From a virus (taxonomy: Duplodnaviria; Caudoviricetes): a stretch of DNA of 64,000 bases. This document shows positions 31,647 through 60,829 of this stretch, one piece after another (position 1 is the first letter of the stretch; the number at the start of each line of letters is the position of its first letter). Both the position numbers and the translations under genes were made by a program. The notes beneath the pieces are model-generated. The model was not told where the DNA came from. It worked only from the letters and a program-made list of their open reading frames with translations, and searched no databases. The stretch lies in the IMG/VR virus record IMGVR_UViG_3300020577_007013, one strand, 5' to 3'.

Positions 31647-31796
31647 ATGAAGATTATTCTTTCATTATTCTTTACATCCGTAGTCTGTGCAGCTTCGTTC
31701 GCTGTTTTTTGTCTCGATATCATAATTATGCTCACTTCATTCGTTCTTTTATTTCCATTGGGGAAAAATGCAAACGCTAATGCCATACAAAAGTAA
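31647..31796 (+). CDS. small hydrophobic protein (49 aa)
   Basis: MKIILSLFFTSVVC... reads open to TAA 31794-31796. Confidence 0.35.
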   Translation: MKIILSLFFTSVVCAASFAVFCLDIIIMLTSFVLLFPLGKNANANAIQK

Positions 31797-32181
31797 ATTT
31801 GAAGAAGCTGGACTTCTTAAGAATTTTATTCTTTCTACCTTTCTCTTAAGTCCTGAATTCGTAAGTGGACAAGGGGAATTTGAAAGACCTCACACAACCG
31901 AGTCCCTTGAAGCTGCTAAGAGAGTGAATAAAGCTACATATAAATTCGTTTTCAATAGACTTAAAAAAATGGAGTCCAAAGGAAAACGAATTAAGAAAGT
32001 CGAAGGTAATGAGTCGACGAATACAATTGAAGTAGACTATGAGACAAAAACAGGTGAACTGAAACATAAGACTATTAAGTTCACACCTAATGGTACCTAT
32101 ATAAATGATCAGCTAATGAGACTCGATAATGAGAGTCTCTTAAATAAAATGAGATCATTTCAAAATCAATTTGAGAGCTAA
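31768..32181 (+). CDS. YKSxFxE-motif protein (putative internal head protein)
   Basis: MPYKSKFEE from ATG 31780. Confidence 0.55.
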   Translation: MQTLMPYKSKFEEAGLLKNFILSTFLLSPEFVSGQGEFERPHTTESLEAAKRVNKATYKFVFNRLKKMESKGKRIKKVEGNESTNTIEVDYETKTGELKHKTIKFTPNGTYINDQLMRLDNESLLNKMRSFQNQFES

Positions 32182-33273
32182 ATGAAAAAGCCAAAAGTTT
32201 CGAAGTATATCGACAGATTTGAAGGAGTGACTGACTTTACTTGTGAAATTTGTGGTCACTTTATAGAGTTCAAACATCATAAAGTCCCCTTGACAGCTGT
32301 CTCGAATCATATAAAGAACCATAAAATTACTTCTAAAGAATACTATAGAAGATATTTGAAAAAACCAGAAGAAGGGATTTGTCAGAATCCTGATTGTAGA
32401 GGACCTACTAAGCAATGCTCTATTAGGTGGGGTTACAAGCCATATTGCACCATTCAATGCTTTAATAGCATGGATGCATCCTTAAAAGGACACTACTCTG
32501 AAAATTTAAGTCACAGTCTTTCAGTAGCGCATAAAGAAGGGAGAAAAATTGGTTACTGGACTACAAATGAACCATGGAATAAAGGTCTGACATCTAAGTC
32601 AAATAAAAAAATGAGAGATCTCCTTAAAAAAGGGGTAGAGACCAAGAGAAAAAATGGAACATTAACTCCTTGGAATAAAGGGATGAAAGGACAATACTCA
32701 GTTGTTTGTAAAAATCCAGAACAAAGATCAAGAAGAATATCAGAAGCTCTCACAGGAAAAAAACTTTCAGAGAATCACAAAAAGAAATTAAGAGATCATA
32801 GAGTCCAGGACAATTTCGGTAAAGGTGGGAAGTTCTCCCAACTATTATTTAGAGAACTTAATGATAAGCTCTCACAAATTAGACAAGACTTCGAAATACA
32901 TTTCGGAGATTTTGATAGAGAGACAAAGACCCTTTTAAGAAAAGAGCGCTCCGTTAATGTAATCGGAATTTCCAAAACTCATAAAATGAGATATCTTGAT
33001 TGCTATCTTAAAATAGACAACAGAAAGATAAATATAGAGTTCGATGAAAAAGGACATTCTAAGGAATGGAGAATGTCAGAAGACTTAGAAAGAGAATGGG
33101 AACTTTTACAAAGAGTACCTGAATTAGAAATCTACCGTATACGATTTAAGGACTTTCTAGAAGGACAAACAAAAATCGTAGATGACTTGATAAAAATAAT
33201 TTTAGATAAAGACTCAAATGTAGATAATAAATATTTATCTTTAACAAAACTTAAGGAAACTTCAAATGTATAG
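32182..33273 (+). CDS. free-standing homing endonuclease (Zn finger, NUMOD3 repeats, PD-(D/E)xK domain)
   Basis: CEICG, PWNKG twice, KKLSENHKKKL, YLDCY...NIEFDEKGH. Confidence 0.8.
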   Translation: MKKPKVSKYIDRFEGVTDFTCEICGHFIEFKHHKVPLTAVSNHIKNHKITSKEYYRRYLKKPEEGICQNPDCRGPTKQCSIRWGYKPYCTIQCFNSMDASLKGHYSENLSHSLSVAHKEGRKIGYWTTNEPWNKGLTSKSNKKMRDLLKKGVETKRKNGTLTPWNKGMKGQYSVVCKNPEQRSRRISEALTGKKLSENHKKKLRDHRVQDNFGKGGKFSQLLFRELNDKLSQIRQDFEIHFGDFDRETKTLLRKERSVNVIGISKTHKMRYLDCYLKIDNRKINIEFDEKGHSKEWRMSEDLEREWELLQRVPELEIYRIRFKDFLEGQTKIVDDLIKIILDKDSNVDNKYLSLTKLKETSNV

Positions 33274-33874
33274 CCCTAGCTTGTTCGACAGAATTTCGAG
33301 CTCACTTTCACCAGTTCTTAGAAAGGTCAGTGATATCTCTACTACGCTCTTTGGAACCAAGGTAAATCTTCTTCGCATATCAAAAGACATTGATAGCTTT
33401 ACTGGAAAGCCGATGAACATTTTTGGAGACTACGATCAAAAATGGGGCTCATCAATTCTGTCAAATGTCGTAGTCAAGTATCCTTTTTCAAGAGTTGAAA
33501 TCTTTTCCCAACTCAATCAGACAGATTATTCGTCAAAGACAACAGGTCTTGACATGATGGAATTACTTCCCATCAAAATTCAATTGCAATTCTATGGTGA
33601 TTTTGATACAGACCCAATCGTAATTAAAGTAGGTGACATCCTTGTTGATGTTCTTTTTGATGAGAATTATAATGCAATTCCTATCACTATGGAAGTCAAG
33701 AGGACATTCGGTTCTTTTTTCGGTAAAGATATTGTTTCCAAAGAAGCTGAGATGACTTTGACAAGAGGAGGCCTAGATGTACAGATTCAAAATGAAATTG
33801 ATAAGTACGTGGCCCAAACTTCACAGGAGAGACAAGCTCAGGTTGCTAATGGTGGAAATCCAGACCTCTGCTAA
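33266..33874 (+). CDS. putative head-completion/neck protein
   Basis: 202 aa immediately upstream of terL; assignment from context only. Confidence 0.35.
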   Translation: MYSPSLFDRISSSLSPVLRKVSDISTTLFGTKVNLLRISKDIDSFTGKPMNIFGDYDQKWGSSILSNVVVKYPFSRVEIFSQLNQTDYSSKTTGLDMMELLPIKIQLQFYGDFDTDPIVIKVGDILVDVLFDENYNAIPITMEVKRTFGSFFGKDIVSKEAEMTLTRGGLDVQIQNEIDKYVAQTSQERQAQVANGGNPDLC

Positions 33875-33882
33875 AATGATCA

Positions 33883-36972: not shown

Positions 36973-36987
36973 GAGTACTAACTTTAT

Positions 36988-37365: not shown

Positions 37366-37404
37366 TTATTAAAGTCTCCTTCTTTATTATAAAGGAGAGA
37401 AAAC

Positions 37405-40645: not shown

Positions 40646-40653
40646 GAGGGACT

Positions 40654-41440: not shown

Positions 41441-43141
41441 ATGGAAAGATCAGGATTTGATTTTAATTCAGACCAAGGAGTCTCTGCTGGGGTAGGTGGT
41501 GGAGTCTCCAATGTTACCGCAACGGCTCCATTATCAAGTTCAGGTGGTGCTACTCCTAATATAGCTCTTTCCCAATCAGGAATTTTTGATTGGAACAACA
41601 GACAGCTCTTAAATACATCAGGAAATCCTGTTTTGGGTTGGCAGAATCTTCTAACATCAACTGTAAATCTTTATCCCAATCTCCCAGATACAGGAAATAA
41701 TTCCCAGTTAATGGGTCTAAATCTTCAGGTTGTCCCATTAGCGTCGACAGCAAATCAATTGTTCACAACATTAGGAATCAACACATCAGTAGACCCGTTC
41801 AATGCTGGGTTCGACGTACAGCAAGCAGTTCCGTTAGACGTATCTCTGAATCATCGTAACACTCAAGGTAAGCTCTCATATTCAGCTGTAGGTCGGATCT
41901 TTGCAAACCTAGGAGATCCTGTCTTAACAGGAGGAAAACTCGATCAGCTTGAATTGCTTGCATTAAATACGTATGTAGATCAAGGATACTCGATTCAGAA
42001 TTTCTACGGTATCACGCTAAACCAAAACTTCGATGCAGGCTCTTTAATGCACGGTTTTGGAAATGTTACTCAGATATCTTCAAACCCTGTTTTCAGACAG
42101 ACAGGAGTTCAAAATATTCACGGTATAGATTTGTATGCTCAAGTTTATAGCGCTGTATCTGGTGGAGTCAATTTATTTACAGGCTCATACAATCAATTTG
42201 GATCATCTGCTTATTGGGTAGAGGCTCAAATGGGCTCAAACTTTCGTAGCGGATCTAGTACTCCTGACTATAAAGGTGTAAATATATCTCCATCATTTGA
42301 TGCTGGATCAACGAACGGAAATTTGACTCTTCTCAATGTCTCTCCTAACGGTAATGTCGCTGCAACTTCTGCTGCAGGCTTGATGATCAATATGGATAAC
42401 GTCACATCATCTACTGGGTATGGCGGAAATGGTCGAACTATTGGAATTCAAGCAAGTGGTGGATACATTAATACGTTTTACTCAACGTCTACCCAAAGTG
42501 GCATTTTTGTGGATTTAATAAATGCTCACATTCTCAATCTAAAAATAAATTCCGGTCAACCTATCACGAATACTGAGGTCTTGATGAATGGAATTATCGG
42601 TCTAATAGAAGCTCATGACGACATTGGAATTGGCCCACTTGGATTCGGCATCGCTAAGATCATTGCCGGTGGTCAACTTACTGTGGACTCAGGAAAGACT
42701 GTATCATCAATCTCTGAGTTTATTTCGGGATGCTCAGTATCACCTCAAGTAGGAGACGGTGGTACTGTTTCAAATTATTACGGATTCAGACATGAAGGGA
42801 TAATCCCTTTTGGTGGAAATCTTAACGTCACAAATCTATATGGTTTCTTTCAAGGAGCAAACGCATCATCAGGATTCTCTGTTCCTAATGCATGGGGTGT
42901 ACACATCGCCGACGCAAATGCTGAGAATTTTTTCAAGAAGTCTTTGGTAGTCGGAGGTACATCAGGTAAAGTATCAGATGCTGGATACTCAATTGAGATC
43001 GCCGACAAAAAAGCATTTAAATGGACTCCTATGACGACAGCTGAAAGAGACGCTTTATTTGCGACTCCTTCTGAAGGAACTGAAATCTACAATTTGACGA
43101 CTCATACAAAACAAGTCTACAATGGAAGTGCATGGATATGA
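41441..43141 (+). CDS. virion fibre protein (GFDFNS N-terminus)
   Basis: VTATAPLSSSGGATPNI fibre repeat; C-terminal MTTAERDAL...IYNLTT...YNGSAW. Confidence 0.65.
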   Translation: MERSGFDFNSDQGVSAGVGGGVSNVTATAPLSSSGGATPNIALSQSGIFDWNNRQLLNTSGNPVLGWQNLLTSTVNLYPNLPDTGNNSQLMGLNLQVVPLASTANQLFTTLGINTSVDPFNAGFDVQQAVPLDVSLNHRNTQGKLSYSAVGRIFANLGDPVLTGGKLDQLELLALNTYVDQGYSIQNFYGITLNQNFDAGSLMHGFGNVTQISSNPVFRQTGVQNIHGIDLYAQVYSAVSGGVNLFTGSYNQFGSSAYWVEAQMGSNFRSGSSTPDYKGVNISPSFDAGSTNGNLTLLNVSPNGNVAATSAAGLMINMDNVTSSTGYGGNGRTIGIQASGGYINTFYSTSTQSGIFVDLINAHILNLKINSGQPITNTEVLMNGIIGLIEAHDDIGIGPLGFGIAKIIAGGQLTVDSGKTVSSISEFISGCSVSPQVGDGGTVSNYYGFRHEGIIPFGGNLNVTNLYGFFQGANASSGFSVPNAWGVHIADANAENFFKKSLVVGGTSGKVSDAGYSIEIADKKAFKWTPMTTAERDALFATPSEGTEIYNLTTHTKQVYNGSAWI

Positions 43142-43409: not shown

Positions 43410-45128
43410 ATGCCAAAACTTAGAGGAGGATTCATCTTCAATGCAGACGAAGGGGTTTCTGGAAGTGGTGGTGGAGGTGGAGGTTCGGTGGCCATCCTTG
43501 ATGAAGGCGTACAGATTCTCGCTAGTGCTACTGCGATCAACTTTGTAGGAGCTAACATTACGGCAATAGCCAATGGAACTCAAGCTGTCATTTATTCTCC
43601 TCCTCCGACATTCGTTTCACATTTTAATACAACAGACGGAATCGGAAATTGCTCAATTGGAAATTTTTCTGTAACGTCTAGAAAGATCTCAGCTCCTACT
43701 TCTGAAGGTGTTCCATTTAAAATCGGATCTTGGACTGCTGCAAGCTTTCAAAATACTACGAACTCATCTACATTAAATTTTACTACTACAAATCCATGCT
43801 CAATTCTCAATAATACGTCAACAGACTTCAATGTAACAGTCTATGACGCTGATGGAACAACTGTTTTAGCAACAAATTCTAAGATAGGAATTTCTGGAAA
43901 TTATTCCAACACTACAAGCAATATTACAATCACTATAAGTGGCTTCACGACCAACAGTACAAAGTATCAAGCTGTGCTTGCAGCATCGATAAATATTGGA
44001 GCAATACTTCCAAATGGTGGAAGACTCTCCGTCAAGTTAGAACATGTTGATGGAGCAGACGGTACATTTACCAAGACACAAAATAATGTCTTCTACGATT
44101 CAAACAATAATGCAGCGACTTTATCAGGTGTCACTATAGCAGAGACTCTTGGACAAGTCGTCGTCAAAAATTTAAGTGGAGTCTCTTACTATACTACAGG
44201 ATCTAAATTCAATGTAGGAATAGCAGACATAGACTACATCAATAATAGATCATATCCTACAACTCAAGTAGAAGTAATAGCTCCTAACTATGGATTAGCT
44301 CAACTCAATCTTCAGTCAGGAAATCTCTCTTCTTGGACATCTGCATTTGACAATATCAATGCCACTTATTCTAATTCTGCATGGGACATAACTGCAGTCA
44401 ACTTTGGATATGTAGGATCTGCAGCAAAAGCAAGTGCTAGACCAATTGATTGGACAGCTGGAGCTTATGTAGATAGCTCTCTATCTTCTATAGCAGTCGA
44501 CACTTATTCAGACAATTCAACTAGAATTTTTGAAGACTTCGTCAACGAAAATAAACGTCTCACTTCTGCTTGGGCTGCATGGAATTCTAATCAAAGTCTT
44601 TTGTCTTATGACGGCAATCAAGGGCTTCAGTATTACCAATCGACTTTAATCTATCCTCAAACTGATTTCACAATTTACTCACCGAATTCAGGAACCCAAC
44701 CTAATTATTCTACGTCTTCAGGAAGTAGAGTTGCATACATAAAGTTCTACAAACTCAACCAATCTTTTAGCAGTGGACGATTTGTTTTAGGATCTCATAA
44801 CATTACTGAAGCAAATCTTGCTGCGAATGATGTCATCTTTGAGGTTTCACTGGACGGAACAAATTATTTTAACATCAATTCTCTTTACTTAGGTGGATCA
44901 ATCTCAAATGGTCAAGGTTGCAGAATCAATGATGATACTCACGGCTTAAGTGGAGCAACAGTGAATGATAGCTCATTGGAATTTACTTTCGGAACTGGTA
45001 AATTTACAGACTCGACAACAGGAGCTGGTCCTGAAAAATGGGGAGCAGTACTCAAGATCACCTTCGCAGGAACAGTAACAGGAAAAACAAAATCTATAGG
45101 AAGCATAAATATGCTAAGTTGGAATTAA
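43410..45128 (+). CDS. putative virion structural protein (GFIFNA N-terminus)
   Basis: DEG...INFVG motif common in phage virion proteins; S/T/N-rich. Confidence 0.6.
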   Translation: MPKLRGGFIFNADEGVSGSGGGGGGSVAILDEGVQILASATAINFVGANITAIANGTQAVIYSPPPTFVSHFNTTDGIGNCSIGNFSVTSRKISAPTSEGVPFKIGSWTAASFQNTTNSSTLNFTTTNPCSILNNTSTDFNVTVYDADGTTVLATNSKIGISGNYSNTTSNITITISGFTTNSTKYQAVLAASINIGAILPNGGRLSVKLEHVDGADGTFTKTQNNVFYDSNNNAATLSGVTIAETLGQVVVKNLSGVSYYTTGSKFNVGIADIDYINNRSYPTTQVEVIAPNYGLAQLNLQSGNLSSWTSAFDNINATYSNSAWDITAVNFGYVGSAAKASARPIDWTAGAYVDSSLSSIAVDTYSDNSTRIFEDFVNENKRLTSAWAAWNSNQSLLSYDGNQGLQYYQSTLIYPQTDFTIYSPNSGTQPNYSTSSGSRVAYIKFYKLNQSFSSGRFVLGSHNITEANLAANDVIFEVSLDGTNYFNINSLYLGGSISNGQGCRINDDTHGLSGATVNDSSLEFTFGTGKFTDSTTGAGPEKWGAVLKITFAGTVTGKTKSIGSINMLSWN

Positions 45129-45129: not shown

Positions 45130-45405
45130 ATGGAAAAATACAAAAGAATATTCGAAGACTTTAACTCAGATCAATTGGTCTTTGTAAAAGCTCCTTCAGA
45201 TCTTGAGAGAATTCTCAAGACAGAAAAAATTGAGTTCAGAAAAGAGCCTCATCAAGATAAGTTCTACTATTCCTTCGATTCAAAGGACTATCCAAAGGTT
45301 CAAGAGATTCTTAAGAAGAACGGAATCAAACCTGACTCTATCCAAAAAGCATTATTCTCATCGACATTTGAAGATGAACATTTTACAAAAAGGAAGTACA
45401 CATGA
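45130..45405 (+). CDS. YKxxFED-motif small protein
   Basis: MEKYKRIFED. Confidence 0.55.
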   Translation: MEKYKRIFEDFNSDQLVFVKAPSDLERILKTEKIEFRKEPHQDKFYYSFDSKDYPKVQEILKKNGIKPDSIQKALFSSTFEDEHFTKRKYT

Positions 45406-45894: not shown

Positions 45895-46520
45895 AACGAT
45901 TACTGCTACTGTTACTTGTTCCTCTCTGTCTTTACGGTCAGACATTCGACCAGAAAGTAAGAGAGCAACTCGAAAAAGACAAGAAAGTCATTCAAGCTTT
46001 CAATGATCTTAGGGTGAAACAACTAGAAGCCATGAATGAGTTCTTGAGAAAAGGACCTACAACTGAGTTAACTTATGACGGAGTTCACTTAAACGTCAAG
46101 TCAGTCTCTGAGATCAAGGTATATGACATCAATGCAGAAACGTTGGAAATCTACGAGATTCAAAAAGCGTCGGTTGAAAAGAATGCTTCATTTATGTTTG
46201 AAGGTGGACAATATCAAAGACCACTTTGGTATGTTGGAAATATTTTCAAGTTAGGTGGAATTCTCTCTTACAATAAAGATGCACAAAAAGTTACTCCTGA
46301 CATCATGCTCATGTATGAGTTTCTTTCCTTTGATAGGATACTTCCATTTCATGGTCTGTCATTAAATGCTGGAGTCGGATTACAACATGTAGGTGGAACT
46401 ATAGGTTATCAACTACTCAAGACATCATGGTTCAAAAATACTTCTATCCATTTAGGATACTCTTACAATTTTATTGACATGAGTCCAAGACCTATTCTTG
46501 CCGTCTCACTTAACTTTTAA
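45891..46520 (+). CDS. secreted protein with C-terminal outer-membrane beta-barrel-like region
   Basis: signal peptide, helical segment, alternating beta strands ending in C-terminal Phe (LAVSLNF). Confidence 0.5.
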   Translation: MKRLLLLLLVPLCLYGQTFDQKVREQLEKDKKVIQAFNDLRVKQLEAMNEFLRKGPTTELTYDGVHLNVKSVSEIKVYDINAETLEIYEIQKASVEKNASFMFEGGQYQRPLWYVGNIFKLGGILSYNKDAQKVTPDIMLMYEFLSFDRILPFHGLSLNAGVGLQHVGGTIGYQLLKTSWFKNTSIHLGYSYNFIDMSPRPILAVSLNF

Positions 46521-46927
46521 TGGGATACCGAAGACATAGGAAAAAATTTCCTAAACACAAAAAGGACATGAAGCCAAAGGATCCTTTTGGATCCCCTATT
46601 GAAAGAAAGTTCTTTAAGACAGCTGAGACTTTAGGATTGACCTTAATTCCCCAACACAAAGAAGCTAGATACAAGCTTGACTTTCTCTATGTAGAAAGCG
46701 ACATAAAATTTGCAATAGAATTGGATGGCTCACGATATCACAGTAGTAGGGCCCAAATGACCCACGATTATCGAAGACAACGGTATCTGCAGTCTCTAGG
46801 GTACATTGTCATAAGATTTACAGGAAAAGAGATAAAAGAAGACGTAGCTAAATGTGTCAACGACTTCATAGAATTGAAGGACGTACTGATTAAATATGCT
46901 ACAAATGGTTATAAACTTCTTTCTTAG
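46520..46927 (+). CDS. DUF559/Vsr-like endonuclease
   Basis: YKLDF...AIELDGSRYH...DYRRQRYLQSLGYIVIRF. Confidence 0.85.
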   Translation: MGYRRHRKKFPKHKKDMKPKDPFGSPIERKFFKTAETLGLTLIPQHKEARYKLDFLYVESDIKFAIELDGSRYHSSRAQMTHDYRRQRYLQSLGYIVIRFTGKEIKEDVAKCVNDFIELKDVLIKYATNGYKLLS

Positions 46928-47549
46928 AATCTTCGCATTCTTCAAGTCAAACAAACAAGCCGGAACTATAGCTTCCGACGTCTTCGGAAAAGTTACAGGA
47001 TCAGTCCAACAAACGATTGCTGCTTTCAAGACTGTGGATCTCGGACCTAAAGAAAGAATTCCTCAATCTACCCTCACTAATCCAGCAAGAATTTATGCAT
47101 GCAATGTGACATCACATCTTATGATGGACATAGTTCAAGGAGCTGAACCTATATCACTTGATTCTTACTACGCAAAATGTTTAGCTCTAAATGCAATTCG
47201 TCCTGATTGCTATGTTCTAGACTACAACAAAATGAGAGAAGCTTCTGGACTTAAAGGATACAAATATAGAAGTGCTGATGTCACAAATGTTAATGAGATC
47301 ATTGAAAAACTTGATAAAGGAATTCCAATGCATGTTCATGTTGGTGGACACTTTGAAATGATAAGAGGATATACCCAAACTCCTGAAGAAACTCTTATCT
47401 TGATCAACGATCCAGGCTACTGGGTAGATACACACATGGAAGCAACCACATTAAGAGTCTTTAGGTTTGACGGAACTAAAAGAATTTATTCTAAGGGACA
47501 CGATGGTAAAGATCGTAAAGCCCTTTCAATCGGCTGGTACGAGAAATGA
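46896..47549 (+). CDS. papain-like C39-type peptidase (endolysin candidate)
   Basis: ACNVTS (Cys), GGHFEMIRGY (His), INDPG (Asp). Confidence 0.65.
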   Translation: MLQMVINFFLRIFAFFKSNKQAGTIASDVFGKVTGSVQQTIAAFKTVDLGPKERIPQSTLTNPARIYACNVTSHLMMDIVQGAEPISLDSYYAKCLALNAIRPDCYVLDYNKMREASGLKGYKYRSADVTNVNEIIEKLDKGIPMHVHVGGHFEMIRGYTQTPEETLILINDPGYWVDTHMEATTLRVFRFDGTKRIYSKGHDGKDRKALSIGWYEK

Positions 47550-48298
47550 AAAAACTCTTTGTAATTGGCATACTAGCGATCCCTACTTTAGGGTGGTCTT
47601 ATGAAGAATCAGACAAAGTAATTTTCGACAGTCTGTCATATTACAAAGACAATTACTTCATTACAGGAGATAAGAGCTCTCAAATAAAATCTCAACTCAG
47701 TTTCAAATATCAAATCTTTAATGGTCAACCTCTTTTTCTAGGCTACTCTCAACTCATGTTTTGGAACGCTTATGACACAGATAATAGTTCACCTATGTGG
47801 GATATGAACTTCAATCCTGAAGTTTTCTACAAGAAGGAATCTACATGGGGATTTGTGAAGATAACTCCTTTCGAACACAAATCCAATGGTGCTCCTAGTG
47901 GACCGAGCGATAGAGACTGGGATAGGTTCGGTCTCACATTGGGAAGCTCTTTTGATTTTTGGAGACTTCAACTTTTCTACTCACTTAAAGGATACTACAT
48001 CTATTACACGAATGACAAAAACTCAGATATTCGAGACTATTTAGGTTGCACAGAAGCAAGGTTAGGGCTCAAATTCAATGAGGACAAGGGGATCTTCTTT
48101 GATAGAGAGGAACTCAGTGTAAGACTAATCTCAGGATTTAATGGACTCGGAGCTAGAGAATATAGTCTAAAATTCAGACCTCTCATTCCTGATTTTTCAC
48201 CTTTCATTTACTTTCAAATTTGGGAGGGATACGGAGAAGCCCTCTTAAACTACAATGTCTACAACAAAGCCTATCGAGTGGGGCTCATCTTTCAGTGA
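47546..48298 (+). CDS. pldA: outer membrane phospholipase A (OMPLA)
   Basis: signal peptide; KSQLSFK, GYSQLMFW, SSPMWDMNFNPEVF, catalytic EHKSNG, RDWDR, GYGEALLNYN. Confidence 0.9.
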   Translation: MKKLFVIGILAIPTLGWSYEESDKVIFDSLSYYKDNYFITGDKSSQIKSQLSFKYQIFNGQPLFLGYSQLMFWNAYDTDNSSPMWDMNFNPEVFYKKESTWGFVKITPFEHKSNGAPSGPSDRDWDRFGLTLGSSFDFWRLQLFYSLKGYYIYYTNDKNSDIRDYLGCTEARLGLKFNEDKGIFFDREELSVRLISGFNGLGAREYSLKFRPLIPDFSPFIYFQIWEGYGEALLNYNVYNKAYRVGLIFQ

Positions 48299-48311: not shown

Positions 48312-48560
48312 ATGGATTCCTACAAACCAAAATACTTACTCACAGAAAAAGAAGATCTCGATAAGAGACATTTCAGAGAAGCTGAAAGATTCACAAAAAA
48401 GATTTATGCTATCGAAAATGAAATCAAGAATCTCGCATCTGAAATGGTAAAAAGCAAGCTCTCTAGAGAAAGACGTCAACAGATTCAAAAACTGAATCTG
48501 ACTCTTCATGAGCAACTCGCAGTTTTCGAAAAAATCAGAAAGTCTTTAGACTCTCTTTAA
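48312..48560 (+). CDS. small coiled-coil protein with YK-type N-terminus
   Basis: MDSYKPKYLLTE; ACTAA upstream. Confidence 0.55.
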   Translation: MDSYKPKYLLTEKEDLDKRHFREAERFTKKIYAIENEIKNLASEMVKSKLSRERRQQIQKLNLTLHEQLAVFEKIRKSLDSL

Positions 48561-48913
48561 TTCTTGAATTTCTTTTTGTATTTGGTTAGGGTCAAGTATC
48601 TGTTATTGCCGTTAAGGGAATTCCACACATGAATCATATACTCTCTAAATGTGAGGTTTCCTTCGAACTTCGTTTCTAGCATTTCCATCATTTTCTTTTC
48701 ATCTGAGGATGTCATGACACATTTAGAATTCTTCTGCCATTTATAATCTATAAGCTTTGAGGTTTTCAGATTTATTCTAGCATCATAGCAATCTGTTTTT
48801 TTCAGGTGAAAATGTTTAGGCTCGTGATCTGTTTGGACGTCGATTTTGAATTGACCATATTTGACAATATTCGCCATTTCAATCAATTTCGTCTTTTTAC
48901 CAGAGTCTTTCAT
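48557..48913 (-). CDS. DUF4160-like protein
   Basis: DHEPKHFH motif, A.I.L segment and W..LN ending. Confidence 0.6.
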   Translation of the reverse strand: MKDSGKKTKLIEMANIVKYGQFKIDVQTDHEPKHFHLKKTDCYDARINLKTSKLIDYKWQKNSKCVMTSSDEKKMMEMLETKFEGNLTFREYMIHVWNSLNGNNRYLTLTKYKKKFKN

Positions 48914-50056: not shown

Positions 50057-50075
50057 GTTTCACAACTAATTCAAT

Positions 50076-52682
50076 ATGGCAAATTTCCGTCAACAGGTCA
50101 TTGAGAGAGATCTCTCTGGTTTTACAACAAACCCCAATGACCAAACTGGTGCATTCGTAATTCGTACTAGAAAAGGTCGTAACAAACCTAGACTCATTGA
50201 TAGTGAGGAAAGCTATCTCCTTTATTTCGGAGTTCCTGACTCTGACTATTGGGGTGGTTTTGAAGCTATTCAGTACGTTCGTCAAGCTCCAGCTTGGATC
50301 GCTTCCCCTTATACAGCAAATGCTAAGTGGGCAGGCATCGACATTAAAGACACCACTGTAACGACTTTCGGTACAAGAACTGGACGGAACTACGATGCTT
50401 GGTCAACAAGCTCTTACACTTCAGTAAAATATAATCTTCCACAATACCTTGCAGGAACAGGTAATGGTACCACTACAATCTTTACCGGTACTATTCCTTC
50501 TATCTCTGCTCCAGACCCAATCGTATCTTCTGCATCCCAACCGATTCAGATCATAAAATCTGGAACAGTCGTAACAGACGACTCTGTAACTCCAGGTACT
50601 CTTGTCGGAAACTCTCAAGTAACTTCCGGTACAGTGAACCTTACTTCAGGAGCTTACACAATCACATTTGCAGGTACAGGTGGTACAGCAGCATCGTATA
50701 CGACTTCAGTAGACTTGCTTAACGTTCCAGCACCTGCAACATCAGGATATCAGGAAGTAGACTTTACAGTAGCTAAAGTTGGATCGGACTCTACTGGACT
50801 TGCTAACACAGCTCAAGTTTATACTGCTTCAATTCTCGTAGACGGTGTAGCAAATCCTATCACTGTTACTGGTTCAGCAGCTCAGACATTCACGACTTTA
50901 GCAACTCAAATTACAGCTGACTTGACAGGTGCAACTGCAACAATTACTGGTGGAAATTTGAGAATAACTTCAGCTTCAACTGGAGCTACTTCAACAATCT
51001 TCATTACAGACACTGACCTTTTCTCTTCACTTACAAACTATTCAGCTCTGTTAACTCCTGTGAATGGTATCAATGCAATTCTTCCTGGAATTGACCTGAC
51101 AATTCATGCTAAACCATTAGCTGCTAATATTACTGTTGATGGTGTAACAGTTCAGAACGTAAACTTCGGAAATACAGATACATCATTTACAAATACCGAC
51201 ATGGTAAACGTAATCAATACAGCATTTGGTACTTCCGTTGCTGCAACTTCTACCGACTTTGTAGTACTCAGTGGTACAATCACAGATGCTGTTTCAGGTA
51301 AGATCATTATCACACCTCCTACAGATACAGTGACTTACAAATCAGCTGTGAATGTGCTGTTCAATTCTTCAGTAGCTTCAACTGCAACTATCTCTGCCTT
51401 CGGTACTTATCCTACTGGTGGTATTCCGAGATACGGTCAGACTTTCTATATCGACTACCTCAAGTCTGCTAACATCAGCGCAACGACTTCACATACATTC
51501 TTTACATATAGCCCGTACACAGATACTGACTATATGCTTGCTGCTAAAGTAACTACACTTGATGTTGCAACTAAGAAGTACCAATTGGAGCTCTTCGATA
51601 AGAAGCCAAACGGTTACATTCCTATCAACACTTATGTGTACTCACTCAATAAAATTAAAGACGGATTTGGTAAGTCACTTTACATCTTTGACATCTTCAA
51701 TGATGATCCTTACCTGATTCCGTTTGTGAACACAGCTTATGCAGGAACTGCTAACATTTCCTTGCCACAAATTGTAGATCTCACAGGTGGATTTAGAGGT
51801 TCAGATCCTGCAACTTCAGACTTCAACTCAGTATGGGATAACTTCCAATTCAATGCAAAATATCCAGTGAAGACATTCATGGATATCTACGGTACTTATG
51901 CTAATAAGATTTTGAGTCTTATTCAGAACTACCAACCCTATGCATTCGGAATCACTGTTGTGCCATTTGGTAATACAGCTTCACAAGCAATTACCTATCG
52001 TTCAACTTTAGGTATCGATGATGCACATCTTTCTCTCTACACAAACTGGTTGAGAATTGAAGATCCTTACAACAACTCCTCTGCTTGGGTATCTGGAGTT
52101 GGTAAGATGGGTGTTAAATACTCTCTCATGGGTAATACATTCGATTCACTGTCTCCTGCTGGTATTGATGAGAACAATCACGGTGGTCAAATCTCTTCTA
52201 TTGGATTCAGAATCCTTGAAGTTGAACATGACTATACTGACAACGAATTGTTCTTACTGGATAATGCACAGATAAATCCATTGGTTGCGAATCCGATCTA
52301 TGGTGTACTTGCAATGGGTGATAGAACTCTTCAAGTTACAAACTCTGATACAAGCTTTATCGGAACACGAAGACTATACAACTACATGATAGACAATATC
52401 ATTAAGCAAGTTCTTAAGAAACAAGAATTCAAGCTCAATGATCCACAACACAGGTTGCTGGCAACGCTCTTAACAAATGAGTTTATTTCACCGATTGTGA
52501 ATAACGGTTACTTAAGAGAAGCTGTAGTTGTTTGTAATGAGTCTAACAACACAAATGAGATTCTGAACCAACGTAAGTTCGTTCTTGATATCTATGTGAA
52601 AGTAACTCCAAACTCACAGGTAAACTTACTGAGACTTACTCGTCTGTCACAAACTCAGACAATAGCTCAGTTCGTAAGTTAA
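50076..52682 (+). CDS. contractile tail sheath protein with large inserted domains
   Basis: ERDLS...KG...FGVP N-terminus; SPAG...G, INP, GDRTLQ, RRL, CNESNNT, DIYVK C-terminus. Confidence 0.92.
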   Translation: MANFRQQVIERDLSGFTTNPNDQTGAFVIRTRKGRNKPRLIDSEESYLLYFGVPDSDYWGGFEAIQYVRQAPAWIASPYTANAKWAGIDIKDTTVTTFGTRTGRNYDAWSTSSYTSVKYNLPQYLAGTGNGTTTIFTGTIPSISAPDPIVSSASQPIQIIKSGTVVTDDSVTPGTLVGNSQVTSGTVNLTSGAYTITFAGTGGTAASYTTSVDLLNVPAPATSGYQEVDFTVAKVGSDSTGLANTAQVYTASILVDGVANPITVTGSAAQTFTTLATQITADLTGATATITGGNLRITSASTGATSTIFITDTDLFSSLTNYSALLTPVNGINAILPGIDLTIHAKPLAANITVDGVTVQNVNFGNTDTSFTNTDMVNVINTAFGTSVAATSTDFVVLSGTITDAVSGKIIITPPTDTVTYKSAVNVLFNSSVASTATISAFGTYPTGGIPRYGQTFYIDYLKSANISATTSHTFFTYSPYTDTDYMLAAKVTTLDVATKKYQLELFDKKPNGYIPINTYVYSLNKIKDGFGKSLYIFDIFNDDPYLIPFVNTAYAGTANISLPQIVDLTGGFRGSDPATSDFNSVWDNFQFNAKYPVKTFMDIYGTYANKILSLIQNYQPYAFGITVVPFGNTASQAITYRSTLGIDDAHLSLYTNWLRIEDPYNNSSAWVSGVGKMGVKYSLMGNTFDSLSPAGIDENNHGGQISSIGFRILEVEHDYTDNELFLLDNAQINPLVANPIYGVLAMGDRTLQVTNSDTSFIGTRRLYNYMIDNIIKQVLKKQEFKLNDPQHRLLATLLTNEFISPIVNNGYLREAVVVCNESNNTNEILNQRKFVLDIYVKVTPNSQVNLLRLTRLSQTQTIAQFVS

Positions 52683-52686
52683 GAAT

Positions 52687-53061
52687 ATGAAAGCCTATAA
52701 ATCAAAGTTCACTGAAGCTCTTACTCCTGAATCGGAGATGGTCAATCTCGATGAGATCGAGCAATTCAAAGACTCTCATCTCCAACTAAAAATTCTCCCC
52801 ATTAAGTTAGCTTCGGGAATAGTCAGCTCTCTGAGAGAAGCTCTTCCTGAATTTAAGTATCTCCCTTCAATTGACTACGTCGATGTTATGGGAAAAATGC
52901 TTATCTCAGACTCAAACTATTTTTTAATCGACTTTCTTCAAGGAATTACTCCTAGAGAATTAGAGATATTCAAAAAGATGGTTGCTAACACAAGATTTAA
53001 AAAAGTGATAGCTCTGGTACCGAGCACAATGAATAGAGGAATAGGAAAAACAAATGATTAA
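52687..53061 (+). CDS. YKSxFxE-motif protein
   Basis: MKAYKSKFTEA. Confidence 0.6.
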   Translation: MKAYKSKFTEALTPESEMVNLDEIEQFKDSHLQLKILPIKLASGIVSSLREALPEFKYLPSIDYVDVMGKMLISDSNYFLIDFLQGITPRELEIFKKMVANTRFKKVIALVPSTMNRGIGKTND

Positions 53062-53377
53062 AATGTACGAATCAATCTTCTCTGAAATGAATGCAGAGCC
53101 AATGGACGAGAAGAAAACCGAGAAGGAAGTCGACCCAGCAGAACAGATTCTGGAGATTCTCTCTTCTAAACAATTTACCAAATGGTATGAAGGTGAGTTT
53201 GCTGAATACAAAGAAGGCGGAGAAGAAGCTCCTTCTAAAGAAGACATTCTTGAAGATATTCGCTCTACCTTCATCACAGAAATAGAAGAAAAAGAAGCTG
53301 AAAAAGCAGAGAAAGAAGAAAAACCTAAGAAAGATAAAGAAGACAAAGAAGACGAACTTGATGAGGACGCTTATTAA
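53054..53377 (+). CDS. acidic YESIFSE-motif protein, paralog of 53457-53693
   Basis: MYESIFSE; shared FxxWY...G...AP..E.ILE.I domain. Confidence 0.6.
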   Translation: MIKMYESIFSEMNAEPMDEKKTEKEVDPAEQILEILSSKQFTKWYEGEFAEYKEGGEEAPSKEDILEDIRSTFITEIEEKEAEKAEKEEKPKKDKEDKEDELDEDAY

Positions 53378-53456
53378 GAATGGCTAAATCCCAAGCACAA
53401 CTTGCTTTGGAAAATGCTCTTAAGGCAATAGCAGACAAACTGAAGGAAAAGAAATA

Positions 53457-53693
53457 ATGGAATCCTATAAAAGTAAATTTACTGAATCTGAAGGTCCTGA
53501 TGAAGCTAATGCAGCTCAAGTGGTATTTGAAAAAGCGAAACCTGAAGTCAAAATAATCTACAATGCTCTATTTTCAGCATCTTTTGAAAACTGGTACAAG
53601 ACTGACTTTGATAAATTTGTCTCAGGAGATCAAGATGCTCCGACTATGGAAGAAATTTTAGAATACATCGAAGACAACATGACAGGTGGTTAA
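53457..53693 (+). CDS. YKSxFxE-motif protein
   Basis: MESYKSKFTES. Confidence 0.6.
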   Translation: MESYKSKFTESEGPDEANAAQVVFEKAKPEVKIIYNALFSASFENWYKTDFDKFVSGDQDAPTMEEILEYIEDNMTGG

Positions 53694-53697
53694 TATA

Positions 53698-53985
53698 ATG
53701 CAAGCTTACAAATCGATATTTTCTGAAAAGAAAAAGAAAGACACTGATGAGAAGGAAGACAAATCCCTCAAGAAGAAAAAGTCTAAAAAGAAAAAACTGA
53801 AAGAAGACACCGACAAAAAGACTATCGTTGCTCATGCTCAAGCAATCAAAGAATTTGCAGAAGAGATCATATCCACAGACGACGATGAATACAGAATGCA
53901 AATGATTGATGAGCTCATAGATGAGGCTGACGAACTCAGAGACCTAATTGAAGAAATTCCTGATGGAGAAGAAAACGAAGAATGA
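53698..53985 (+). CDS. YKSxFxE-motif protein, highly charged
   Basis: MQAYKSIFSE from ATG 53698. Confidence 0.6.
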   Translation: MQAYKSIFSEKKKKDTDEKEDKSLKKKKSKKKKLKEDTDKKTIVAHAQAIKEFAEEIISTDDDEYRMQMIDELIDEADELRDLIEEIPDGEENEE

Positions 53986-54323
53986 CTCCTTATAAGTCAC
54001 TTTTTCAAGAGTCTCGATATACTCGTCTTGCTCAGACAGATGAACAAGAAGATGCAATTTACAAAATTGTAAAGTGGCTTAAAAAATTAGGAAAAGTAAT
54101 AGTGGGTGCTACCACTATAGGAAAAAATCCACAAACTGTTATTTTAGACCTCACTTATCAAGGTGGGGAAATTAGAATTAGAGCTGAAGATGATGGAGAA
54201 TATCCATTCATCAAAGTGAACAACAAAGAAATCAACAACTTCCAGGATCTGAAAGATGCTCTAGGAATGTCTGATTCAAAAGTTGAAGATGAGGATTTGG
54301 AAGAGGATTTTAGATCACAATAA
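53982..54323 (+). CDS. YKSxFxE-motif protein
   Basis: MTPYKSLFQES. Confidence 0.6.
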   Translation: MTPYKSLFQESRYTRLAQTDEQEDAIYKIVKWLKKLGKVIVGATTIGKNPQTVILDLTYQGGEIRIRAEDDGEYPFIKVNNKEINNFQDLKDALGMSDSKVEDEDLEEDFRSQ

Positions 54324-54333
54324 GGAACGGAAC

Positions 54334-54699
54334 ATGACAGACAGACTGAAACAAATCGTAGAAAAATACACCCTTAAAGAAACCGACGGGTTCGAAGGTA
54401 AAAAAGACAAAGAAACCAACGTCGAAGAAGATCTTCGTAAGAATTACGAGACCAGCAAAATGGTTCCTTACCAATCAGTAATCGCTGAAGGTAAGATAAT
54501 TGTCTCTAAGAAAAAGAAAATAAAAGAAGGCAATGGTATCGGATCAGCTGAAGATTGTATCAATGAAATTAAGAAAGTCGGTAATAGCATCGGTAATACC
54601 GATTATGAGTCTTTTTCGGATGAAGAGAAATCAGAGATTTATGATGCTTTAACATTTCTTGAGTCAGAAATCAAAAATTGTAAGAATAGACTCTATTAA
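54334..54699 (+). CDS. hypothetical protein with internal MVPYQSVIAE motif
   Basis: ATG 54334 with a purine-rich SD-like sequence upstream. Confidence 0.55.
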   Translation: MTDRLKQIVEKYTLKETDGFEGKKDKETNVEEDLRKNYETSKMVPYQSVIAEGKIIVSKKKKIKEGNGIGSAEDCINEIKKVGNSIGNTDYESFSDEEKSEIYDALTFLESEIKNCKNRLY

Positions 54700-54720
54700 A
54701 AAGAAAGAGACTAATACAAC

Positions 54721-55281
54721 ATGGCAGTAGATCTAAACCTCAATCAACTCATGGCTCTGGGTAATGACCAGATCATGTCACAATTCATTATCCGTTTTCC
54801 TAATGGAATTCCTGGATCAACTGTCAATCCTAAACTCTTGTCTCTCAGGATGGACCAAGCATTTGAGATTCCAGAGAAGACAATTGGTACCTATGAACTT
54901 CACTTTCAAGGTCTGAAGGTAGTCAAAAACTCAGTCACTGATGGTACTGAGAAAAAATTTAATATCTCATTCAGACTCGACGGCAACTGGCAAGTATGGG
55001 ATGCTCTCGAAGCTTGGTATGACAAAACCTTTGATGATATCTTAGGTGTAAGTTCTCCTGAACCGGATGTCTCAACTACTATGACAGTTGACTTTTATGC
55101 TAATAAGAATGTCTCAATCAAGACATTTACTTTTACTGGTGTAAGAATCTTTGCACTCAAACCAGGTGGTACAGATCCTGCATCTGGAGAACCTATGCGT
55201 TGTGAAGCACAGTTCCTCTACCATAAGAGAACTTCAACTACAAACTCATCTGGCGCTGGTCCAAACCCAGTTCTTCCATAA
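54721..55281 (+). CDS. tail tube protein
   Basis: 186 aa, gp19-like pattern (IPEKTIG...FQG...VWDALEAWY...FTFTG); near the sheath gene. Confidence 0.75.
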   Translation: MAVDLNLNQLMALGNDQIMSQFIIRFPNGIPGSTVNPKLLSLRMDQAFEIPEKTIGTYELHFQGLKVVKNSVTDGTEKKFNISFRLDGNWQVWDALEAWYDKTFDDILGVSSPEPDVSTTMTVDFYANKNVSIKTFTFTGVRIFALKPGGTDPASGEPMRCEAQFLYHKRTSTTNSSGAGPNPVLP

Positions 55282-55288
55282 TCTAACC

Positions 55289-55915
55289 ATGAACTTTAGG
55301 AGACTTTGTTTCCTTCTGTTCATAGTCGGTTGCACCAATAGGGATACATACAAGTATCTGAACAAGACTGACGATCCTACAGTTACCTCCTACGATTTCA
55401 CTCCAGGAAATATAGACAATTATGGTCATAATGGTGTCACAGTTGTAGAAGGAAATAAGTATGAGTTCTCCATTCAATGCAATGGGAAAGACTCCTATAT
55501 AAGAATTCCTTATTCAGATTCTCTTCCTGAAGGTTCATTTGAAGCTTATGTCTATATGGATGAGCCTAGACCTTTGTCAGGAATCATACACAAAGAGTCT
55601 CATAGTCTGAAGCTAAATGAAGACGATAAAATGGAACATGAAGATGATGACGATTCTGCTGAAGACAAAGACAAATTTCCAGAAAAGAAATGGGTTCATG
55701 TGGTTTCAACTTGGAATGCACAAACAGTGAGTCTCTACTACAACGGTGTCTTAGTCATTTCAGTCTCTAGAAAAGATAACAAAGAAATTCAAAGCTCCTT
55801 TATTTTTATCTGCTCAACTGGAAAGATCAACTCATCTTGGTCGGGAAAAATGGAAGGAATTAAAGTCCATAAAAAATGTTTGTCGTCAGACGAAGTTCAT
55901 GAGAGGTCTAAATGA
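55289..55915 (+). CDS. lipoprotein with LamG/concanavalin A-like domain
   Basis: lipobox FIVGC from ATG 55289; KWVHVVSTWN...LYYNG, WSGKMEGIKV. Confidence 0.7.
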   Translation: MNFRRLCFLLFIVGCTNRDTYKYLNKTDDPTVTSYDFTPGNIDNYGHNGVTVVEGNKYEFSIQCNGKDSYIRIPYSDSLPEGSFEAYVYMDEPRPLSGIIHKESHSLKLNEDDKMEHEDDDDSAEDKDKFPEKKWVHVVSTWNAQTVSLYYNGVLVISVSRKDNKEIQSSFIFICSTGKINSSWSGKMEGIKVHKKCLSSDEVHERSK

Positions 55916-56382
55916 AAAAGATTCTTTTATTCGTTGCTTGCTTACTTTCTATGAATGCCGCAAAGCCTACAACTGACTATTCCATTGGAGCTTCTAACAA
56001 TCTCTATATTCCTACAGGAAAGTTTACTGAAGTAATGAACCTAGCTTATGTCGGATGCTTTCAAGGTATGTTCGTTTTTAGTAGAGTCTATCTCAAGCCC
56101 GAGCTCTGTAGTGGAGTGCTAGTTGGGAAGTTCGACAAGAACGCTTTCCTTTATGAAACGAACCCTATTATCGGACTCACTCACAAGAATTTCTTCTTTG
56201 GTGTAGGACCTTCTTTCAATTTTACTCAGAATATTTATACGACTGGAATCAAGTCAGAGATTATGTATGCAATTCCTTTTAATCAGTCTCGACTAATGTT
56301 AGGAATAACAGATTCAGTCTATTTTGAAAGTTATATTCTCAATATGCTGGGATTCTCAGCTAGTGTAATGCTAAAAATTTAG
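55912..56382 (+). CDS. secreted beta-barrel-like protein
   Basis: signal peptide followed by amphipathic beta strands. Confidence 0.5.
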   Translation: MKKILLFVACLLSMNAAKPTTDYSIGASNNLYIPTGKFTEVMNLAYVGCFQGMFVFSRVYLKPELCSGVLVGKFDKNAFLYETNPIIGLTHKNFFFGVGPSFNFTQNIYTTGIKSEIMYAIPFNQSRLMLGITDSVYFESYILNMLGFSASVMLKI

Positions 56383-58761: not shown

Positions 58762-59028
58762 TCATAATTGCTCCACATACTTTTTAGCATCTGATAAAGA
58801 CCATTCAGTGATCTCTCTTACGAGTTTGATTGCTTCTACCCATTTTCCCTCAAATTTCATTCGTCTAAGAAGTTCTAAGTCAGTCTTATACAAATTTCTA
58901 GGAAAAGGTCCTTTCGGCTTTTTCTCTTTTTTAGGAGGCTTTCTATATTTGTCAATGACTTCTCTCAGTCTGTCCATTTTTTCAAAGACAGCTTCAGCTG
59001 CTTCTAAAAGCTCATCATCTTTTTTCAT
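58762..59028 (-). CDS. ribosomal L7/L12 C-terminal-like domain protein
   Basis: KWVEAIKLVREITEWSLSDAKKYVE matches the L7/L12 CTD-like signature. Confidence 0.6.
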   Translation of the reverse strand: MKKDDELLEAAEAVFEKMDRLREVIDKYRKPPKKEKKPKGPFPRNLYKTDLELLRRMKFEGKWVEAIKLVREITEWSLSDAKKYVEQL

Positions 59029-59029
59029 A

Positions 59030-59290
59030 TTACCTCTTTATCATTGCATTCAAACGTGAAGCTTGTTTTCCAATTTCAGTGACAGCTTCATTACTATATC
59101 GTCTCTGAAGAATAGGGGTTCTTATAAGTAAAGCGTCTCTTCCAATGTGACCCGTCTCACAGTCTGAGGAACTGCTTCGAACCTCATAGAAGACTATGAT
59201 CCCATTAGAAGTGACTTCATAAAGGCAAGAGTAGTTAGACTCTCCACAGTTTATGAGAAACAGAAGGATAGTAAAGCAGAAGATTCTCAT
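59030..59290 (-). CDS. putative lipoprotein
   Basis: MRIFCFTILLFLINC: hydrophobic stretch ending in Cys. Confidence 0.5.
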   Translation of the reverse strand: MRIFCFTILLFLINCGESNYSCLYEVTSNGIIVFYEVRSSSSDCETGHIGRDALLIRTPILQRRYSNEAVTEIGKQASRLNAMIKR

Positions 59291-59541
59291 AATGTTTTCT
59301 CCAAAGAACTTTCGAATTCAATCATAATCGCATTCTTGATCATAGGCTTTAGACTTTCGTTATCAAAGAGTGCTGTGAGATCTTCGTTTCCATCGGTCAC
59401 TGTATGATCAAATGAGAAGGAATTCGTTTTTGTCGTCTTCCCATCTTCGATTTTCTTGATTGTAACTTCGTATCTCATCTACTTATTTATAATACAGCAT
59501 AGGGCATGAAGTCGAAATCTCTCGCAAATAACTAATCACCA

Positions 59542-60357
59542 ATGGCCATCGATTTTAATGCTGGATCTAAGGAGCTTCGTAAATCTACGATACTTCCAGT
59601 TTTGGAGTATCTTCAAAAAGTAAGTCTCCAACACAAGTGTAAATTCGAATTCCTCATCACTCGAAATCCTCTCGATGATATAGACAAAAGTCAAGATGTT
59701 CTTTCGAATGTTGTGGACGTCGCTCTCTCTGTTGCCGGAACTGCTGCTGATGTTCTCATCACTAAGTTCTTTCTACAGTCGATTAACTTTCCTTCAGAAG
59801 CTTCATTAGAGTATGAGCGACTTAATGGTAATAAATATGTCAAGAGCATTGTCTATCCAGAAACTGTCAAGCTACAATTCTTAGAAACTGAAGACGGTAT
59901 CGTTAGAAGATACTTAACAGAATGGTTTCGTAAAATCTTTGTACCAGTTCCTAAAGATGGTCCGATCAACTCAAAAGGACTTGGACTTGGTGCTGTAATT
60001 GGTGCAGCTGCTGGTGGAGTAGTAGGTGGTTTAGGTGGAAATGCTGGAAGTGGTGCTGCTGGATTTGTAGGTGGTGCTGCTCTAGGTGGAGCGTTAGGAT
60101 CGACTCTAGGTATGGGAGTTCCTGAAGCTAAAGCTGGATCGTATGTATTCAAAGACAATCAAGAAGCTGCTAAACGAACAGGAATGCTTCTTATGTATCC
60201 TAAAGATGGTTCATTTCCTCTCTATCCTCGTATCATGTTTTACGGTCTCTCTATCATGTCAATTGGAGACTATACTGTAGACCAAAAAGATGAAGCTCCT
60301 CTTATGTATGATGTGGAATTCTCTGTAGATGAGATCAAAATTCCTCAGATATTCTAG
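59542..60357 (+). CDS. tail tube-like/baseplate-tube protein with Gly-rich insertion
   Basis: tube fold pattern (QSINFP...VKLQFLETE...YLTEW...DVEFSVDE); ACTAA upstream. Confidence 0.6.
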   Translation: MAIDFNAGSKELRKSTILPVLEYLQKVSLQHKCKFEFLITRNPLDDIDKSQDVLSNVVDVALSVAGTAADVLITKFFLQSINFPSEASLEYERLNGNKYVKSIVYPETVKLQFLETEDGIVRRYLTEWFRKIFVPVPKDGPINSKGLGLGAVIGAAAGGVVGGLGGNAGSGAAGFVGGAALGGALGSTLGMGVPEAKAGSYVFKDNQEAAKRTGMLLMYPKDGSFPLYPRIMFYGLSIMSIGDYTVDQKDEAPLMYDVEFSVDEIKIPQIF

Positions 60358-60490
60358 TCTCTTATGTCTTTTATCATTGACTCCGTTTGAGTACTCACCT
60401 AAAAAAGTAAATAGAAGTGGAAGCTTTCCTATGCCGCTATGTGTTGAGAATGATTTCTGGTGTTTTAAGAGAATAATTTGACTAACTCAC

Positions 60491-60829
60491 ATGAATCCTT
60501 ATAAGAGTCTATTTACTGAAGCTCCAGCAGCACCGACTACTACCACCCCTCTTCCCACATCAAATCCTAAAGTAGTAAACTCGAATGTAAAGGTAACACC
60601 TGGAAATGCAAAGCAAATTGTTCAAGCCAATAAAACTCAGAAAGTCTCACAAGCAGATACGAAGAATAGTCCCTCTAAACTTTTCAGAAATGCAGTAGGA
60701 AAAACAATCTTTGATCCGAAGAATGGGGTAATGTTAATTTTCTCTCAAGAAGGAATTAAGATAGCAAATGTCAAAACTAATAAAGTCGTTGCTGACTTGT
60801 CCTTCAATGATCTCAAATTTAAGACTTAG
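60491..60829 (+). CDS. YKSxFxE-motif protein
   Basis: MNPYKSLFTEA; ACTAA 5 nt upstream. Confidence 0.6.
   Translation: MNPYKSLFTEAPAAPTTTTPLPTSNPKVVNSNVKVTPGNAKQIVQANKTQKVSQADTKNSPSKLFRNAVGKTIFDPKNGVMLIFSQEGIKIANVKTNKVVADLSFNDLKFKT

Follow-up and report, generated by a model that had tools for sequence, protein, structure and literature searches.

We examined a 64,000-nucleotide stretch of DNA (hereafter the window) from the 253,865-bp contig of an uncultured phage (Caudoviricetes; IMG/VR record IMGVR_UViG_3300020577_007013), in which ten open reading frames (ORFs) on the plus strand, between positions 31780 and 60829, carry a common peptide tag, M-x-x-Y-K-S-x-F-x-E, that is probably a counterpart of the head-targeting peptide of phage T4. 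Nine of the ten are clear members and one is weak, and all lie within 29 kb of the contig (Table 1; genes are named below by the position of their start). The tag is 8–12 residues long and, in nine of the ten carriers, N-terminal, within the first 12 residues. An earlier note on this DNA had reported ten proteins with such a tag, and translation of the window together with a six-frame scan returned all ten N-termini as it gave them.

Within the tag the Tyr is invariant, standing at position 4 in eight cases, at position 3 in 31780 and at position 2 in 53063. The residue at position 7 differs between tags (K, I, L or V), and a hydrophobic residue stands without exception at position 8. The tags close on a hydrophobic-x-Glu context, which is F/I-x-E in eight, I-F-E in 45130 and L-T-E in 48312, and the residue after the Glu is A, S or G in 6/10.

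The motif was also found to be enriched over a shuffled background. The pattern YKS.F.E has six matches in the six frames of the window, against a mean of 0.095 and a maximum of 1 in 200 second-order Markov shuffles, and a looser Met-anchored pattern (M..Y[KQE][SRP].[FIY]..E) was observed 12 times against 0.24 in shuffles. In a six-frame regular-expression scan Y[KQ]S.[FI].E has seven matches, each on the plus strand with a Met immediately before it, and nothing comparable occurs elsewhere in the window. We then scored a position matrix at every Met start that is followed by at least 40 codons, 483 starts in all. The 11 starts that belong to the ten genes (53054 and 53063 lie in one ORF) scored 13–23 bits, the next best starts 6.3 and 1.2 bits, and the median was −13. 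Since the matrix was derived from the same ten sequences and the scan is therefore circular, we place weight on the gap between the scores and not on the scores themselves. The 6.3-bit start at 25239 (MTEYRSIFE, 42 aa) was considered as an eleventh member and rejected; it is antisense to a 130-aa minus-strand ORF that bears an ACTAA start motif, and is probably spurious. A 118-aa minus-strand ORF (48557–48913), wedged among plus-strand late genes, has the C-terminus YKKKFKN, which is tag-like without the Glu and may be a coincidence.

Codon usage shows the level at which the tag is conserved. With the tags aligned at their Tyr codon, Ser is encoded by AGT in three, by TCA in four and by TCG in one, and both synonyms are in use for Tyr, Lys, Phe and Glu. 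A switch between AGY and TCN takes two base changes, so the amino acid is what is conserved; selection acts on the tag peptide, not on the DNA. It could otherwise be supposed that the shared sequence is a feature of the nucleic acid, such as a translation-start or recombination sequence, or a relic left by gene duplication, and that it has no function as a peptide. The A/T-rich codons at the gene starts and the one paralogous pair among the cargos (see below) would suit such an origin, yet the codon pattern, with Ser switching between AGT and TCN and other codons varying synonymously, largely refutes it. Further, the tag outlives the body of the protein. In the 52687 family it keeps 8/10 residues in representatives at 70, 39 and 29% body identity, with Y4, K5, S6, K7, F8 and E10 invariant. 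Given also that the domain encoded by 53982 occurs with other leaders and with none, we consider an origin of this kind very improbable. Metagenomes contain homologues of three of the cargos, 52687, 31780 and 53982. Three orthologues of 31780 at about 60% identity, one of them on a 246,652-bp contig, retain M-x-P-Y-x-x-x-F, followed by a slightly longer acidic end that contains Glu.

The body of 53982 is a domain with the conserved elements S-R-Y-T-R-L-A and T-T-I-G-K-x-P-Q, in this order, and is present in many uncultured phages; we compared it across 30 loci. Its two nearest relatives (90% and 67% body identity) bear M[TL]PYKSLF[QT]E. At nine loci the Met start stands precisely where the tag Glu would be, and a stop codon lies a few codons upstream, which indicates that these tagless starts are genuine. 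Other homologues have differing short leaders (MKHIKLFEGFNMNE, MKHIQLFESYNINE, MLHDKIDKLFKCINE and MMGNLEDFVKQISEDVVHE), and in further ones the domain lies in longer ORFs behind N-terminal extensions of 120 to 405 residues. With one exception, these leaders and extensions finish in hydrophobic-x-Glu directly before the domain. At the locus L008 the domain bears MKHIKLFEGFNMNE, a leader type that also heads six neighbouring genes of L008; the domain there thus appears to wear the local tag. As read from these junctions, the tag is a module that meets the domain at the Glu, and the boundary falls exactly after that residue. The domain also occurs inside proteins of 594 aa (L036:8867–10651) and 443 aa (L029:9170–10501) encoded between portal and S77 protease genes, which, judged from the neighbouring genes, is a head-module context.

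The design of the tag recalls the capsid-targeting sequence (CTS) of T4. Both T4 internal proteins IPII and IPIII begin MKTYQEFIAE, then Ala, and this decapeptide is their CTS and is removed by gp21 (Mullaney and Black 1996, cited in PMC8442874 and PMC9026906) in a single cut, after which the peptide exits the capsid (PMC8442874). Mapping in IPIII indicated that ten residues are enough, with positions 4 and 7 needed for targeting and 8 and 10 for processing, and that an Asp at position 10 keeps loading while it blocks cutting (PMC9026906). In T4 relatives further proteins bear sequences that resemble the CTS, which may serve evolution as a means to load a variety of proteins (PMC9026906). Like the CTS, the tag described here comprises ten residues at the extreme N-terminus, with Tyr4, a hydrophobic residue at 7/8, Glu10 and mostly a small residue next, and it stands on small proteins that are otherwise unrelated (cargo of 7.6–14 kDa here and of 8–20 kDa in T4). 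It differs in its consensus, Y-K-S-x-F-x-E as against Y-Q-E-F-I-A-E, and in its variable residue at 7, one of the two targeting positions of T4. There are also ten carriers within 29 kb, whereas T4 has three internal proteins plus Alt and core proteins, and most of the cargos here are acidic and none is homologous to a T4 internal protein.

Propeptides of ejection or inner-body proteins in the giant phages SPN3US, phiKZ and 201phi2-1 offer a second comparison; they are cut after Glu by a gp21-related protease and are thought to target the prohead (PMC5694885). These are likewise N-terminal, and the paralogues gp53 and gp54 have an identical 15-residue N-terminus (PMC5694885). On the other hand, they are mostly longer than 100 residues and end in A/S/G-x-E, while the tags here have F/I at P3 and are far shorter, and their shared N-terminus is found on paralogues, not on unrelated proteins.

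Short lineage-specific leaders ending in hydrophobic-x-Glu occur in several other uncultured phages, on contigs that also hold the 53982 domain. G001, L008, L017/L018 and L029/L036 are alike in having rows of proteins with one such leader, and unlike in that each lineage has its own sequence (MKxYIKLFEEF, M..L..F[ND][KQ]FE, MDIHTLINET and MADNFNMKKFLxE, respectively). The 238-kb contig G001 encodes a 623-aa fusion of a PF03420 protease with a scaffold and, near its head genes (185–205 kb), about ten proteins that begin MKxYIKLFEEF or similar; one of these leaders is MKLYIKLFEEFIAE, the end of which is the T4 pentapeptide EFIAE. L008 has a 678-aa S77 protease-scaffold fusion (2716–4752, plus strand) and a T4-type capsid gene, and the array of genes with its leader (9431–15490) starts about 3 kb downstream. 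In L036 (contig G002) we found terminase, portal, S77 protease and T4-type capsid genes, together with two genes headed MADNF..K[YF][IL]xE (at 1125 and 10651). L017/L018 carries seven MDIHTLINET-type leaders (L017:852–16488), and no protease was found within the 20 kb examined. Overall, an S77 protease is present on three of four leader-family contigs (G001, L008 and L036), each time with a T4-type capsid gene. When the G001 protease was used as the query for homologues, the matches all belonged to its own large clade, with none on the 253,865-bp contig. We found no published description of such lineage leader families, and a full-text search, which left most subscription journals uncovered, found no paper on expanded CTS families in uncultured large phages.

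On the strength of its design and of these comparisons, we think that the tag is probably a head-targeting propeptide of the kind found in T4, cut off by a prohead protease of the gp21 type, and that the ten proteins are probably head cargo. The proposal of the earlier note that this is a packaging tag similar to the T4 CTS fits all of the computational tests that were run (the match to T4, selection on the peptide, the orthologues, the modularity and the analogous leaders in phages with S77 proteases), and packaging itself stands as a prediction. In the mechanism we propose, the tagged genes would be expressed late, alongside the structural proteins. The N-terminal decapeptide, which would present Tyr4 and Phe8 on the same face, would bind the scaffolding core of the assembling prohead, and a gp21-type (S77) prohead protease would then cut after Glu10 in the context Phe/Ile-x-Glu. 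The mature proteins of 7.6–14 kDa would remain in the head with the DNA and could possibly be released into the host at infection. We infer each of these steps, core binding, cleavage, head residence and injection, as well as the function of the cargos.

Several observations weigh against this interpretation. No head gene is found in the window, since the genes for the prohead protease, scaffold and capsid of this phage lie outside it, and the link to an S77 protease is made by analogy with other phages; within the window the tagged genes sit among tail and lysis-like genes. The mature cargos are acidic in six of ten cases, whereas T4 internal proteins are basic. The second aromatic residue is at position 8, where T4 has it at 7, and position 10 of 45130 is Asp, a residue that in T4 prevents processing at this place, with a Glu present at 9. 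Finally, the Glu that precedes the 53982 domain could belong to the domain and not to a cleavage site; the tagless forms show that the fold does not need that Glu.

The gene neighbourhood raises the question of whether the peptide is instead a handle for a target other than the prohead, for instance a step in the assembly of the tail or baseplate, a chaperone of the phage or a site in the membrane, or whether it signals degradation. Six of the genes lie between the tail sheath and tail tube genes, tagged genes adjoin baseplate-like and lysis-like genes, and the window is without head genes, all of which would agree with such a destination. However, the position-matrix scan of Met starts found none of the large tail proteins of the window to be tagged. 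The tags are without the hydrophobic core of a signal peptide, and none has Gly at its last two positions, as the double-glycine leaders of C39 peptidase substrates do. Moreover, the conserved positions 4, 8 and 10 of the tag are among those used for targeting or processing in the T4 CTS (PMC9026906), with position 7 variable here, and the leaders of G001 and L008 cluster near protease and capsid genes. We therefore regard a destination outside the prohead as improbable, and the prohead as the better candidate.

Table 1. Tagged genes and the flanking tail genes in the window. A slash follows the last residue of the tag; pI, isoelectric point.
Feature	Position	Strand	Length (aa)	Tag and remarks
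Tagged gene 1	31780..32181	+	133	MPYKSKFEE/A; mature product about 14.3 kDa, pI 9.5; other possible ATG at 31768, four codons upstream
Tagged gene 2	45130..45405	+	91	MEKYKRIFED, 17.1 bits; variant tag, Glu at 9 followed by Asp at 10; begins 1 nt past a 572-aa ORF (43410-45128)
Tagged gene 3 (weak member)	48312..48560	+	82	MDSYKPKYLLTE; 13.2 bits, lowest of the set; ATG preceded by ACTAAT-N7; only sub-threshold coiled-coil-type matches in Pfam
Tail sheath gene	50076..52682	+		ACTAAT motif at 50065; followed by tagged genes 4-9
Tagged gene 4	52687..53061	+	124	MKAYKSKFTE/A; opens the island between the sheath and tube genes
Tagged gene 5	53063..53377	+	104	MYESIFSE/M; very acidic, pI 4.3; other possible ATG at 53054, three codons upstream
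Tagged gene 6	53457..53693	+	78	MESYKSKFTE/S; pI 4.1
Tagged gene 7	53698..53985	+	95	MQAYKSIFSE/K; low-complexity Lys/Glu-rich body
Tagged gene 8	53982..54323	+	113	MTPYKSLFQE/S; cargo is a conserved domain common to many uncultured phages
Tagged gene 9	54334..54699	+		internal tag MVPYQSVIAE/G at 54460-54489
Tail tube gene	54721..55281	+		ACTAAT motif at 54710; ends the island of tagged genes
Tagged gene 10	60491..60829	+	112	MNPYKSLFTE/A; pI 10.3; ACTAAC-N5 before the ATG

In gene 9 an AAGGAA sequence resembling a ribosome site precedes 54334 and nothing similar precedes 54460, which makes the start at 54334 the likelier one. The tag of this gene is thus probably internal to the ORF; its product could have a 52-residue propeptide, or a separate 79-aa product could be made from 54460.

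The nearest cultured relatives of the sheath gene are T4-like phages, at 25% identity. The motif ACTAA[TC]-N5-9-ATG heads the sheath and tube genes and six other large plus-strand ORFs (25529, 29440, 41441, 43410, 48974 and 59542), and an ACTAA motif stands directly before two of the tagged genes, 48312 and 60491; the tagged genes belong to units that this motif heads. Sites of the form ACTAA[TCG]-N5-9-ATG are at 25518, 29427, 41428, 43396, 48299, 48961, 50065, 54710, 59531 and 60481, and this motif may be a late-promoter or start-site signal of the phage. The island (52687–54699) takes up the interval between the sheath and tube genes, and we saw no plus-strand terminator-like site in it or between it and the sheath gene. 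The only relative of the sheath found in IMG/VR (L001, 48% identity) lacks tags, and no such island follows its sheath gene. This setting gives a weak hint of late co-expression and of a recent insertion of the island.

Among the neighbouring genes, two adjacent plus-strand ORFs of about 570 aa (41441–43141 and 43410–45128), each with the ACTAA motif in front of it, resemble each other in their Gly-rich N-termini (M..GF.FN.D.GVS.G.GGG) and probably encode paralogous structural proteins. The lysis-like block includes a small endonuclease gene of the REase_MTES_1575/DUF559 type (46520–46927, plus strand), a weak C39-like peptidase (46896–47549, below the Pfam cut-off) and an outer-membrane phospholipase A (47546–48298).

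The earlier note had described the sequences downstream of the tag as mostly unrelated. An all-against-all BLASTP of the tagless bodies bears this out for all but one pair, 53063 and 53457 (E 2e-8), with the remainder low-complexity noise; by this comparison these two are paralogues and the other cargos are unrelated. A second, internal tag-like site is found in 53063 (WYEGEFAE, 53186–53209), where the paralogue 53457 has WYKTDFDK, without the Glu. The mature cargos range from 7.6 to 14.3 kDa, four of them basic and six acidic (pI 4.1–5.9).

None of the ten cargos has a PHROG match at E ≤0.01 or a Pfam match that reaches the curated family cut-off. Two cargos gave no hit when searched by tblastn in 50,697 phage records, and a Megablast of 52000–56000 against GenBank phages gave no match. 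The DNA pattern for M-x-P-Y-K-S-L-F-x-E has four single matches in IMG/VR, none of which heads a tagged ORF. In AlphaFold2 (AF2) models, residues 1–10 of 53982 are unstructured and the remainder is folded (mean predicted local distance difference test score, pLDDT, of 68), and 52687 has residues 1–16 unstructured and an alpha/beta fold from about residue 20 (mean pLDDT 78, core near 90). Foldseek searches of both models against the Protein Data Bank (PDB) returned no match at E ≤0.001. For the 52687 model, VIA-align found only generic AAA+/P-loop-like alpha/beta cores at Z of about 7, within the stated noise of the tool, and a Walker A motif was not seen by eye. For 53982, a lead to the DarA_N cluster (ESM Atlas, TM 0.47) was dropped because Pfam scans of ten homologues gave no DarA match. 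Taken together, these searches yielded nothing that speaks for or against the suggestion of the earlier note that the cargos are anti-defence effectors.

These properties of the cargos bear on whether the tagged proteins are parts for head assembly, namely accessory core or scaffold proteins like T4 gp67 and gp68, and not delivered cargo. Such proteins would enter the core by means of the tag and would then be degraded, or be retained to shape the head or to condense the DNA, and would play no part in the next host. T4 gp22, gp67, gp68, gp21 and gp24 do begin with short peptides that end in hydrophobic-x-Glu (for example, MLKEQLIAE and MEGLIE). These propeptides, unlike the tag, belong to conserved, essential assembly proteins and have a common cleavage context but no single shared sequence. 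The acidic or low-complexity Lys/Glu-rich composition of several cargos would also suit an assembly part, as would the 53982 domain in the head-module proteins of L029 and L036, in the interval between portal and protease. Against this, the cargos are numerous, unrelated to one another and patchy in occurrence, with few homologues and, for two of them, no match in GenBank phages, which would be unexpected for essential parts, and two of them model as compact folded domains. Overall, we consider a role confined to head assembly unlikely.

How such a tag could engage the core is suggested by the scaffolds of the related phages. The scaffold halves of the protease fusions contain about 15 (L008) and about 8 (G001) copies of a 14-residue unit with the core Y-S-E-Y-L-A-E, and at L038 (73–1944, minus strand) an S77 protease is fused to a scaffold of tandem 14-residue repeats. 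The core sequence is almost that of T4, Y-Q-E-F-I-A-E, and each scaffold unit has a gp21-type site. The elements it has in common with Y-K-S-x-F-x-E are Tyr(0), a hydrophobic residue (+4) and Glu(+6). By analogy, the tag may be equivalent to one scaffold unit, such that a cargo joins the core through scaffold contacts and is freed by the same cut. Mimicry of the scaffold would also account for the origin of the T4 CTS.

The idea of a head-loading tag is already known from T4 and its relatives. As far as these sequences indicate, the novelty lies in a distinct consensus, in how densely the carriers occur and in the swapping of leaders across lineages at a fixed Glu junction. It is conceivable, although we hold this only tentatively, that a T4-style tag has here been expanded into a genome-wide address system for a large and fast-evolving library of head-packaged, probably injected proteins, with a tag that may mimic the repeat unit of the scaffold.

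A short transferable tag together with its own capsid would constitute a tool for encapsidating proteins, a use to which the T4 tag has already been put. The resemblance between the scaffold repeats and the T4 tag offers a testable idea for how such tags bind the core, in T4 as well. If the tag works as it does in T4, it marks which small proteins travel in the head, without the need for culture or proteomics, and the ten genes would then be immediate candidates for a part in early host takeover or in counter-defence. More broadly, the swapping of leaders at hydrophobic-x-Glu suggests a general way to read head cargo from the metagenomic genomes of T4-related phages.

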